This document shows, piece after piece, positions 61,897 through 63,103 of a DNA stretch of 64,000 nucleotides. The DNA comes from a virus. Taxonomy: Duplodnaviria > Caudoviricetes. Positions within the stretch are counted from its first letter, which is position 1. Each line of letters opens with the position of its first letter. Position numbers and translations under genes: made by a program. The notes beneath the pieces were generated by a model. It saw only the letters and a list, made by a program, of their open reading frames with translations. It searched no databases and was not told where the DNA came from. The stretch is taken from positions 125,633-189,632 of the IMG/VR virus record IMGVR_UViG_3300029288_001872, one strand, 5' to 3'.

Positions 61897-61951
61897 TAAA
61901 TGCTTAGAGAATTTGAAATTCAAAACCTTTTGCACCAAAAGGATTAAATGA

Positions 61952-62068
61952 GGTCCGGTTCGGTACGGTATGGTTAGGTATGGTCAGGTCCGGTTTGGTA
62001 AGGTTTGGTCGGGTAGGGTAAGGTGAGGGTACTAATCCTACTACACTCGGTAGGATTAGTACAATTTT
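61952..62068 (+). ncRNA. guide array D: 15 x GGT-NN plus hairpin
   Basis: Pentamers 61952-62026; stem 62029-62042/62049-62062 then AATTTT. Confidence 0.8.
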
Positions 62069-62083
62069 TAAGGATTTAAAAAT

Positions 62084-63103
62084 ATGATTCGAGATTTGGC
62101 CATAGTGATCCCGACATACAATCGTTCTAATTTTTTGAACAGGGCTTTAGATTTTTATGAAAGAACAGAATTCCAAGGCTGTTTATATGTTGCAGATGGT
62201 TCAAGCGAAACATACCAATATCTGAACCAACAAATAATTAGTAATCGTGATCTTAAAATAAAGTATTTTCATGACCAAGAAAGTGTTAATGAAGTAATTA
62301 GGATATCAAAAATTAAGAACAATATAATAGAAAAATATGTCACATTTGCTGGTGATGATGATTTTCAACTTCCATTAGGTTTATGTCATTGTGTTAATTT
62401 TCTAAACAATAATCAAGATTACGATGTTTGTTTTGGTATCAAGTTTAATTTTATAATGGAAAATGACAGACCAAAAATGAATGGATTAAATTTAGGTCAC
62501 GATTGGGATTATAATAGTTCATCACAAAGATTTCTTGAATATATGATGACAGGTAATTCTACCAATTATTCAGTTCATAGAAAACACATTTGGGATAGGC
62601 TCTTTGATAAAACAGACATAACAACAAGGTACATTGGAACTGAATTAGTTATGTGTTCAACTACTGCTATATTATCCAAGATAAAAAGATTGAACAGGGT
62701 AGTCACTTTGTATGAAGATAGCGGGTTGAGTTGGCCTCACGAAAAATGTGAGACTGGATGTAATTTACCACCTCTGTTTCAATTAGTCCATTCTTATGAA
62801 TGGATAGAATCGGTAGAAAAATTCAGAGATTATATAGTTGATTTATTAGTTAAAACAGAAAATTTATGTGAATATGATGCAATTCATGTATTCAATAAAG
62901 GGTTTGCATTTAGATTGTATTCAATGTTAGAAGGTCAATTTTGTTATAAATATGGAAAAGAATTTACGGAAGGTCATAAAGAGTTTGTTAGACAAGCGAA
63001 TAAAGAAAGAGATAGTGGGAGAATTGTTTTCTTTGAAGAAGATGTGAAATTTATACAGAGAAGTCTTGATATGGATTTAAGTTGTTTAAATTTAAAAAGC
63101 TGA
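62084..63103 (+). CDS. GT-A/GT2 glycosyltransferase (TIGR00180-like)
   Basis: IVIPTYNR, VADGS, AGDDDF. Confidence 0.85.
   Translation: MIRDLAIVIPTYNRSNFLNRALDFYERTEFQGCLYVADGSSETYQYLNQQIISNRDLKIKYFHDQESVNEVIRISKIKNNIIEKYVTFAGDDDFQLPLGLCHCVNFLNNNQDYDVCFGIKFNFIMENDRPKMNGLNLGHDWDYNSSSQRFLEYMMTGNSTNYSVHRKHIWDRLFDKTDITTRYIGTELVMCSTTAILSKIKRLNRVVTLYEDSGLSWPHEKCETGCNLPPLFQLVHSYEWIESVEKFRDYIVDLLVKTENLCEYDAIHVFNKGFAFRLYSMLEGQFCYKYGKEFTEGHKEFVRQANKERDSGRIVFFEEDVKFIQRSLDMDLSCLNLKS

Follow-up and report, generated by a model that had tools for sequence, protein, structure and literature searches.

A probable stand-alone VIPR guide-RNA gene in a phage sugar operon and its matches in sister phages

Array D and the glycosyltransferase gene beside it

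The 64,000-nucleotide (nt) stretch of DNA analyzed here (the window) covers positions 125,633 to 189,632 of IMG/VR record IMGVR_UViG_3300029288_001872, the 189,632-bp genome of a Caudoviricetes phage (G000). Near the end of the window, in a sugar-gene operon, a tract of five-base GGTNN repeats, array D, lies between a kinase gene and a glycosyltransferase (GT) gene. In VIPR systems a guide of GGY triplets alternating with NN dinucleotides aligns to its target with a one-base skip on the wobble position, targets are found on both strands, and double-stranded DNA is bound with silencing (10.64898/2026.04.26.720920). From sequence comparison, we put the probability that array D is a stand-alone guide-RNA (vrRNA) gene of such a system at about 85%. 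Unless stated otherwise, coordinates are those of the window and features are on the plus strand.

Array D consists of a leading GA (61950-61951) and 15 perfect GGTNN units (61952-62026). The informative part of the guide (61950-62011) is made up of the leading NN and 12 GGT-NN units, giving 13 read dinucleotides, and the last three units (NN = AG, AA and GA) together with GGG form a 3' handle (62012-62029). The handle is semi-conserved – arrays G1, A, C and D all end alike, with GT/AG, AA/AT and GA/AA followed by GGG – and it never matches the targets, target identity stopping 5' of it. The tail of the array (62029-62071) is a 14-bp hairpin (62029-62062) and then AATTTTTAA; it resembles an intrinsic terminator and has a folding energy of -20.8 kcal/mol (z = -7.8). 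Array G1 and the related contig L044 have homologous tails in which both sides of the stem are altered. A small 7-bp hairpin just 5' of the array (61926-61942), found by a pattern scan, could be a 5' processing mark.

The gene downstream of the cassette (62084-63103) encodes a GT2 glycosyltransferase (Pfam PF00535). Its locus was compared with that of G001, a complete sister phage of 187,988 bp that is about 80-90% identical over 57% of the genome, and with two contigs. L044, of 3.3 kb, was the only metagenome contig returned by GT-based searches for the locus, G001 being the only viral contig; L045 comes from a 21-kb contig of another sample and was found by a protein search for GT homologues. 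Neither G001 nor L045 has an array between the kinase and GT genes. In L045 the sugar operon is present but entirely free of arrays, and its genes abut, the kinase stop and the GT start being only three bases apart.

In this phage, a second GT start follows the D cassette, at 62084, and a remnant of the ancestral start (an ATG and about four codons, 61901-61916) lies upstream of it. The remnant and the working start (62084-62099) form an imperfect direct repeat, and the first 11 bases of the remnant (61901-61911) are identical to the GT gene start in array-free L045. What the cassette contains is the repeats, the hairpin tail and a new ribosome site. The cassette of array B, elsewhere in the operon, shows the same pattern: the final six codons of the epimerase gene are present in it a second time, in an L045-like version. 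Because of these junction remnants and the abutting genes of L045, we read the cassettes as insertions between abutting genes, each with a duplicated junction. Short duplicated gene junctions flank both B (59537-59575) and D (61901-61916), and the junction copy left beside each cassette is the sister-like (L045) version.

The earlier note on this DNA had matched reverse-complemented array D to the phage's own GT gene at 62171-62203, with 7 of 11 dinucleotides and 18 of 22 nt, and both this match and the position of the skipped base, codon position 3, were reproduced exactly. Over all 13 units, the own near-cognate site (62165-62202, minus strand, codon position 3 skipped) has 7 of 13 dinucleotides and 19 of 26 nt, and it differs from the guide at four of the first 11 read dinucleotides. 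The site is 138 nt downstream of the last repeat unit (62026). Genome-wide, two other places equal its score of 14, which 33 of 100 order-shuffled guides also reach; within 1 kb on either side of the array, only 16 of 5000 shuffles reach it. The own-gene match, weak by itself genome-wide and significant locally, appears from the sequence to be the shadow of a real target. For six of the nine arrays in the genome, the top genome-wide match in the phage's own DNA is within 400 nt of the array itself.

Better matches were found in the sister sequences. The L045 homologue carries the peptide spelled by guide D, F-N-G-C-I-Y-I-V-D-G-S, and the guide matches it at 12 of 12 consecutive dinucleotides (24/24 nt) and half of unit 13, antisense and in codon phase, with a score of 24 against a shuffle maximum of 14 for the 13-kb locus. 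At the homologous site of the G001 gene the score is 18 (13 units), which none of 2000 shuffles reached (null maximum 16). Identity to guide D is thus 25/26 in L045 and 22/26 in G001, neither of which has an array at the site, and 19/26 in this phage and 19/22 (over 11 units) in L044, both of which do. The phage's own GT gene, to which the earlier note had matched the guide, is a mismatched copy and not the likely target. By its sequence, guide D is aimed at GT2 codons ~28-40, on the antisense strand, as they are found in cassette-free sister phages, and the phage's own gene probably carries a mismatched, resistant copy of the target. A search of IMG/VR for the exact 11-unit D target found nothing.

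The array in L044 occupies the same insertion point as D and has a homologous tail, but its dinucleotides are different. Its guide, D'', is sense to the GT gene, which it matches about 45 codons beyond the D site, and it scores 24 on L045. Amino-acid differences between the GT and its G001 allele are densest in residues 20-80, the region of the D and D'' footprints.

The reading rule and the other scattered guides

Across the 17 arrays of the two complete genomes, only a target period of three gave scores above those of shuffled guides; periods 2, 4, 5 and 6 stayed at background (10-18). The period-3 scores were 26 for G1, 20 for A, 28 for C, 18 for D, 20 for A', 26 for H1 and 22 for M, each reached by none of 100 shuffles. 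An all-against-all comparison of exact gapped words of 8 to 10 units in the two genomes was uninformative, with similar counts at every period (~750-800 at 8 units) because the genomes are AT-rich, and annotated arrays with shuffles were therefore used instead.

The skipped base was codon position 3 in all 20 guide-site pairs that had an assignable open reading frame (ORF), a set that includes 11 different guides. Guides G1, A, B, C, G3, A', H1 and D'' are sense to their genes, while D and E2/E2' are antisense; counted over the 11 decoded guides, eight are sense, two (D and E2) antisense and one (M) ambiguous. The earlier note had called for strand and codon phase to be tabulated across relatives, and the outcome, both strands and uniformly codon position 3, agrees with what it expected. 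Its view that the target is double-stranded DNA rather than mRNA is likewise supported, in that sense guides cannot pair with mRNA, which favours DNA. So is its suggestion that wobble skipping protects guides against synonymous escape: the guide-read positions are perfect in L045, and the own and G001 alleles differ at 7 of the 11 wobble positions of the footprint. Wobble skipping is said to defeat synonymous escape in the published system too (10.64898/2026.04.26.720920). Both principles – targeting of double-stranded DNA on either strand, and resistance to wobble changes – were already known, like the one-base skip, from three bioRxiv preprints of 2026 (10.64898/2026.04.26.720920, 10.64898/2026.04.26.720927 and 10.64898/2026.10.15.759431), and this locus adds an example.

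Seven guides – G1, A, C and D of this phage and A', H1 and M of G001 – have cross-genome matches that no shuffle reached, and none of the seven matches its own genome as well. Scores of 22-28 on the L045 contig were obtained with guides B, C, G1 and E2', which belong to the two large phages, and with the L044 guide. Guide A with its tail (11211-11332) is downstream of the sliding-clamp gene; it matches 10 of 12 dinucleotides at the C-terminus of the G001 clamp, against 7 of 12 in the phage's own gene. Targeting of the clamp is reciprocal, guide A' of G001 matching 10 of 10 dinucleotides in this phage, and the two phages also target each other's recA. The clamp proteins (10212-11192; G001 67920-68900) are identical at 304 of 327 residues. 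Of the 23 residues that differ, 15 belong to the C-terminal 47, precisely the part covered by the footprints of guides A and A'.

In the sugar operon, guide B and its tail (59393-59546) are downstream of an epimerase gene, with a score of 28 on L045 against 18 on the own gene. Guide C and its tail (60736-60882) are downstream of a dTDP-sugar epimerase gene and score 28 on G001, 24 on L045 and 16 on the own gene. Guides E1 and E2 with their tail (63102-63345) are upstream of the next glycosyltransferase-like gene, and E2 is antisense to that gene. In all, five or six guides are found in this phage's sugar-gene operon, each beside the phage's own mismatched copy of the target.

A pattern of four GGTNN units had 90 hits, all on the plus strand, where 0.08 were expected. 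There are six GGTNN arrays in the window and nine in the genome, all on the gene strand. A stable hairpin and U-run (z from -4 to -8) follows eight of the nine, preceded by a semi-conserved GGTRAGGG handle. The stems of the tails vary in sequence between arrays, and a pseudoknot like that of the SUSP1 clade was not found in them. Scattered GGT arrays with such tails are common to this phage and G001, and in arrays at the same site in sister phages (D/D'', A/A' and E1/E1') the GGT triplets and the tail are kept while the NN dinucleotides differ.

Five guides (E1, G2, H2, E1' and G2') had no match above shuffles in any sequence compared here. E1 (63104-63176) has no stable tail hairpin and runs directly into E2; the other four are at genome 12072-12146 and at G001 83034, 116344 and 128190. 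Guide G3 (genome 115703-115762, 9.9 kb before the window) matches nine of nine consecutive dinucleotides in the phage's own primase gene, 120 nt upstream; the conserved handle accounts for three of these nine units. With 21/26 nt, the identity of the whole guide to the primase is ~81%, a level equal to or higher than the self-match threshold that, according to the VIPR preprints, is never reached. The only minus-strand array is in G001 (167543-167630), upstream of what is probably a gene on that strand. In this phage's allele of the gene, the guide reads the opening 15 codons, start codon included.

GGTNN arrays have no Rfam family, and a search of IMG/VR for arrays with the AA-GA-GGG handle found nothing. 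Nucleotide BLAST against phage records returned only short GGTNN tracts of Felixounaviruses, which point to the HY02 locus.

A Vipr-like protein and the guide arrays beside its gene

The only Vipr-like gene in the genome (29360-30019) encodes a protein of 219 amino acids (aa); searches by hidden Markov model, phmmer and tblastn found no second one. Its AF2 model (pLDDT 82.4) has only Cas7-family RAMPs among its top fold matches in the PDB (probability 1.0). BLASTP gave a local match to the Vipr-position gene of a SUSP1 relative, Felixounavirus HY02 (E = 4e-5), and phmmer a match to a SUSP1-type paralogue in G001 (E = 1e-5); the similarity to three such paralogues is full-length. The protein keeps the thumb and loop arginines, with R138 and R179 both conserved, and the GxGxxRP G-loop. 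Sequence and modelled fold together identify it as a predicted Cas7-fold RAMP homologous to SUSP1-type Vipr. It belongs to a large family of unnamed proteins (6954 hits), and neither it nor the 162-aa protein encoded nearby has a Pfam family.

Guide array 1 of the main locus (30020-30760) follows the gene directly and consists of GGCAGG-delimited units with pentamers of GNY and NN. The 162-aa gene (30770-31258), in the position of a vap accessory gene, matches phrog_15946, a family with no assigned function, and has no similarity to the gene in the vap position of HY02. Guide array 2 (31260-31640) includes two units that match the G001 recA ORF (81483-82586), with scores of 18-20 at 81555-81570 and 82137-82143. 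Cryo-electron microscopy of the VIPR filament and triplex has placed H17, D177 and the tryptophan that stacks on the second G of the triplet, W178 (10.64898/2026.04.26.720927). Fittingly, GNY arrays would suit a Vipr which, like this one, has no W178.

A glycine at the position of that tryptophan is conserved across the aligned family members examined. The guides of both main-locus arrays show register shifts. The leader of the vipr gene (29222-29262) has a C-rich stretch with five-base spacing that looks like the complement of a GGY-NN tract. The sister phage G001 has three SUSP1-type Vipr paralogues (in the regions 81483-83653, 87107-87661 and 126575-127141) and none of the 219-aa type. The different VIPR types of the two phages are on opposite sides of recA; in the window, the region concerned is 28133-32756. 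The recA genes are only 62% identical between the phages, compared with mostly 80-95% for their neighbours, and the locus guides of each phage match the recA of the other.

Interpretation, alternatives and related systems

If array D works as published for SUSP1 and Pseudomonas fulva, one Vipr RAMP protomer would bind each GGU, and the resulting filament would present the 13 variable dinucleotides. These would pair with double-stranded DNA, skipping every third base, and the bound complex would block transcription. Guide and resistant allele would travel together, so that the naive allele of a co-infecting relative is silenced and the carrier is spared. We infer that the two act as a linked selfish pair. 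Whether the scattered guides in general are selfish cassettes of guide plus resistant allele – inserted with duplication of a junction, silencing the naive adjacent allele of sisters, and inherited only with the mismatched allele – seems to us an even bet. If they are, guide RNAs would be doing here what homing endonucleases do in marker exclusion, or the cassettes would amount to an RNA-guided form of poison-antidote drive. Such cassettes would also explain the reciprocal targeting of clamp and recA between the sister phages and the amino-acid replacements piled up in the footprints.

The locus amounts to a natural experiment, with a guided operon, a guide-free sister with perfect or near-perfect sites, and a third phage with a different guide at the same point. 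It gives testable predictions on competition among close phage relatives, bears on how self is spared without a PAM (protospacer-adjacent motif), and suggests how guide cassettes spread. The matched series of targets, with 96%, 85% and 73% identity, could be used to measure mismatch tolerance.

Several observations weigh against this interpretation of array D. The own site keeps 73% identity to the guide, and self-avoidance is uneven among the other guides – B matches 22/26 nt of the own gene in its best segment, and G3 all nine units in the own primase. L045 is a 21-kb fragment from another sample and need not co-occur with this phage. In the 219-aa protein, Q, E and G replace the base-contacting H17, D177 and W178 of SUSP1 Vipr. 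The arrays beside the gene use GNY rather than GGY triplets, and GGU repeats may not be loaded by this Vipr. The tail of array D is a plain terminator-like hairpin, unlike the conserved pseudoknot of the SUSP1 clade.

One alternative departs from a guide loaded by the phage's own Vipr only in who does the loading: array D may be loaded into the Vipr of a co-infecting relative, one that reads GGY, and so direct the rival's silencer at the rival itself or at decoys. It fits the protein data, since the sole Vipr of this phage is without the G2-stacking aromatic residue, while the three G001 paralogues keep the D and an aromatic (Y or F). It also fits the scattered GGT arrays with tails common to both phages, and there is a precedent in satellite solo vrRNAs that redirect a rival's Vipr (10.64898/2026.10.15.759431). 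However, GGT falls within the GNY pattern of the phage's own main locus, so its own Vipr may accept it, and the guides match housekeeping and sugar genes of relatives rather than decoy repeats; borrowing is therefore considered unlikely. Self-regulation, in which the guide complex, through its partial match, would attach weakly to the phage's own GT gene and adjust transcription of that gene in cis, is less probable still. The own site is close to the array (138 nt) and locally significant (16/5000 shuffles), and other guides match own genes fairly well (B at 22/26, G3 over nine consecutive units). Against this, the foreign, array-free alleles are clearly better (25/26 and 22/26 against 19/26), the 73% identity of the own site is under the 80% threshold at which the preprints call targets and above which they report no self hits, and the sister phages manage without the array.

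The two remaining alternatives do without DNA targeting. Guides D and E2 are each complementary to the mRNA of the gene downstream and might act on it as antisense RNA, by translation block or decay. Eight identically built guides are sense guides, though, for which pairing with the mRNA is impossible; pairings of two bases separated by three-base loops would be unstable without a protein scaffold; and the published scaffold binds double-stranded DNA and silences from either strand. An antisense RNA is accordingly very improbable. The initial reading of the repeats was that they are no guide at all but a platform of GGU repeats for a ring-shaped RNA-binding protein beside a terminator, as in TRAP attenuation, with the gene match due to chance. 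The five-base periodicity followed by a terminator hairpin does resemble TRAP sites, and the own-gene match alone is not significant genome-wide. The reading was ruled out by the gapped matches: a 24/24-nt match in a 13-kb locus, at the homologous site and in codon phase, indicates that the spacers are informative, none of 2000 shuffles reached the G001 score, and the cross-genome matches of seven guides appear at period 3 only. No TRAP-like gene was seen either, and we give this reading next to no weight.

As a guide, array D shares many features with type II VIPR of phage SUSP1 and the Pseudomonas fulva prophage. In common are a small Cas7-like RAMP with a G-loop and thumb arginine, a run of 9-16 GGY-NN pentamers followed by a tail (15 GGT units and a leading NN in array D), a one-base skip on the wobble position, and targets on either strand in competing phage elements. 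The differences are in the form of the tail and the base-contacting residues of Vipr, as given above, and in placement and targets: guide D is 32 kb from the vipr gene, within a sugar-gene operon, and what is targeted here is the sister phages' version of each gene, not satellites or prophage regulators. The main locus (30020-31640), with its GGCAGG delimiter and register shifts, is like the staggered vrRNA arrays of the published work (fig. S18 legend, 10.64898/2026.04.26.720920), while array D comprises just one guide and one hairpin tail.

Solo or orphan vrRNAs, known from F5 satellites and from SUSP1-like phages without VIPR (10.64898/2026.10.15.759431), are also similar. Like the guides described here, they stand apart from vipr, match self less well than they match relatives, and have wobble-aligned footprints. 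The published ones are located at a deleted vipr-vap1 locus or in satellites and are aimed at vipr, other vrRNAs, satellites or host REP decoys. The present genome, by contrast, keeps a Vipr and has nine scattered guides, each beside the homologue of its target. Scattered guide cassettes of this kind, in a Vipr-bearing genome, flanked by duplicated junctions and each beside a mismatched own copy of the target, were not found by word searches of the three VIPR preprints.

The Cas7 backbone of class 1 CRISPR systems (Csm3, Cmr4 and type VII Cas7) offers a more distant likeness, in the fold of the partner protein and in a periodic guide with some bases withheld from pairing. The period here, though, is five with two bases read, not six with five read. 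A tandem-repeat scan found only arrays with a 5-nt period and none of the repeat-spacer arrays, with repeats of 24-48 nt, that mark CRISPR-Cas. There were no cas1, cas2 or cas6 genes among the scanned ORFs, no adaptation genes were seen, and the solitary 219-aa protein is the only RAMP.

T4-like phages carry free-standing homing endonucleases (the seg and mob genes), which are responsible for marker exclusion. The analogy with the guide cassettes is functional only. Both would be selfish intergenic cassettes beside a gene that is attacked in relatives, in both the carrier's copy would be protected by sequence differences, and in both presence varies between sister phages. The cassettes described here encode an RNA guide rather than a nuclease, with no cleavage activity evident, and the published output of type II VIPR is silencing.

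In L045, a gene of the homing-endonuclease type HNH_3 (2396-2935) is found just upstream of the epimerase gene, where this phage has small ORFs. At 34176-35666 in the window, a HEARO RNA (Rfam RF02033, 135 bits) is followed directly by a gene for a 415-aa protein with RRXRR and HNH domains, and the two together look like a complete IscB-type RNA-guided nuclease module.

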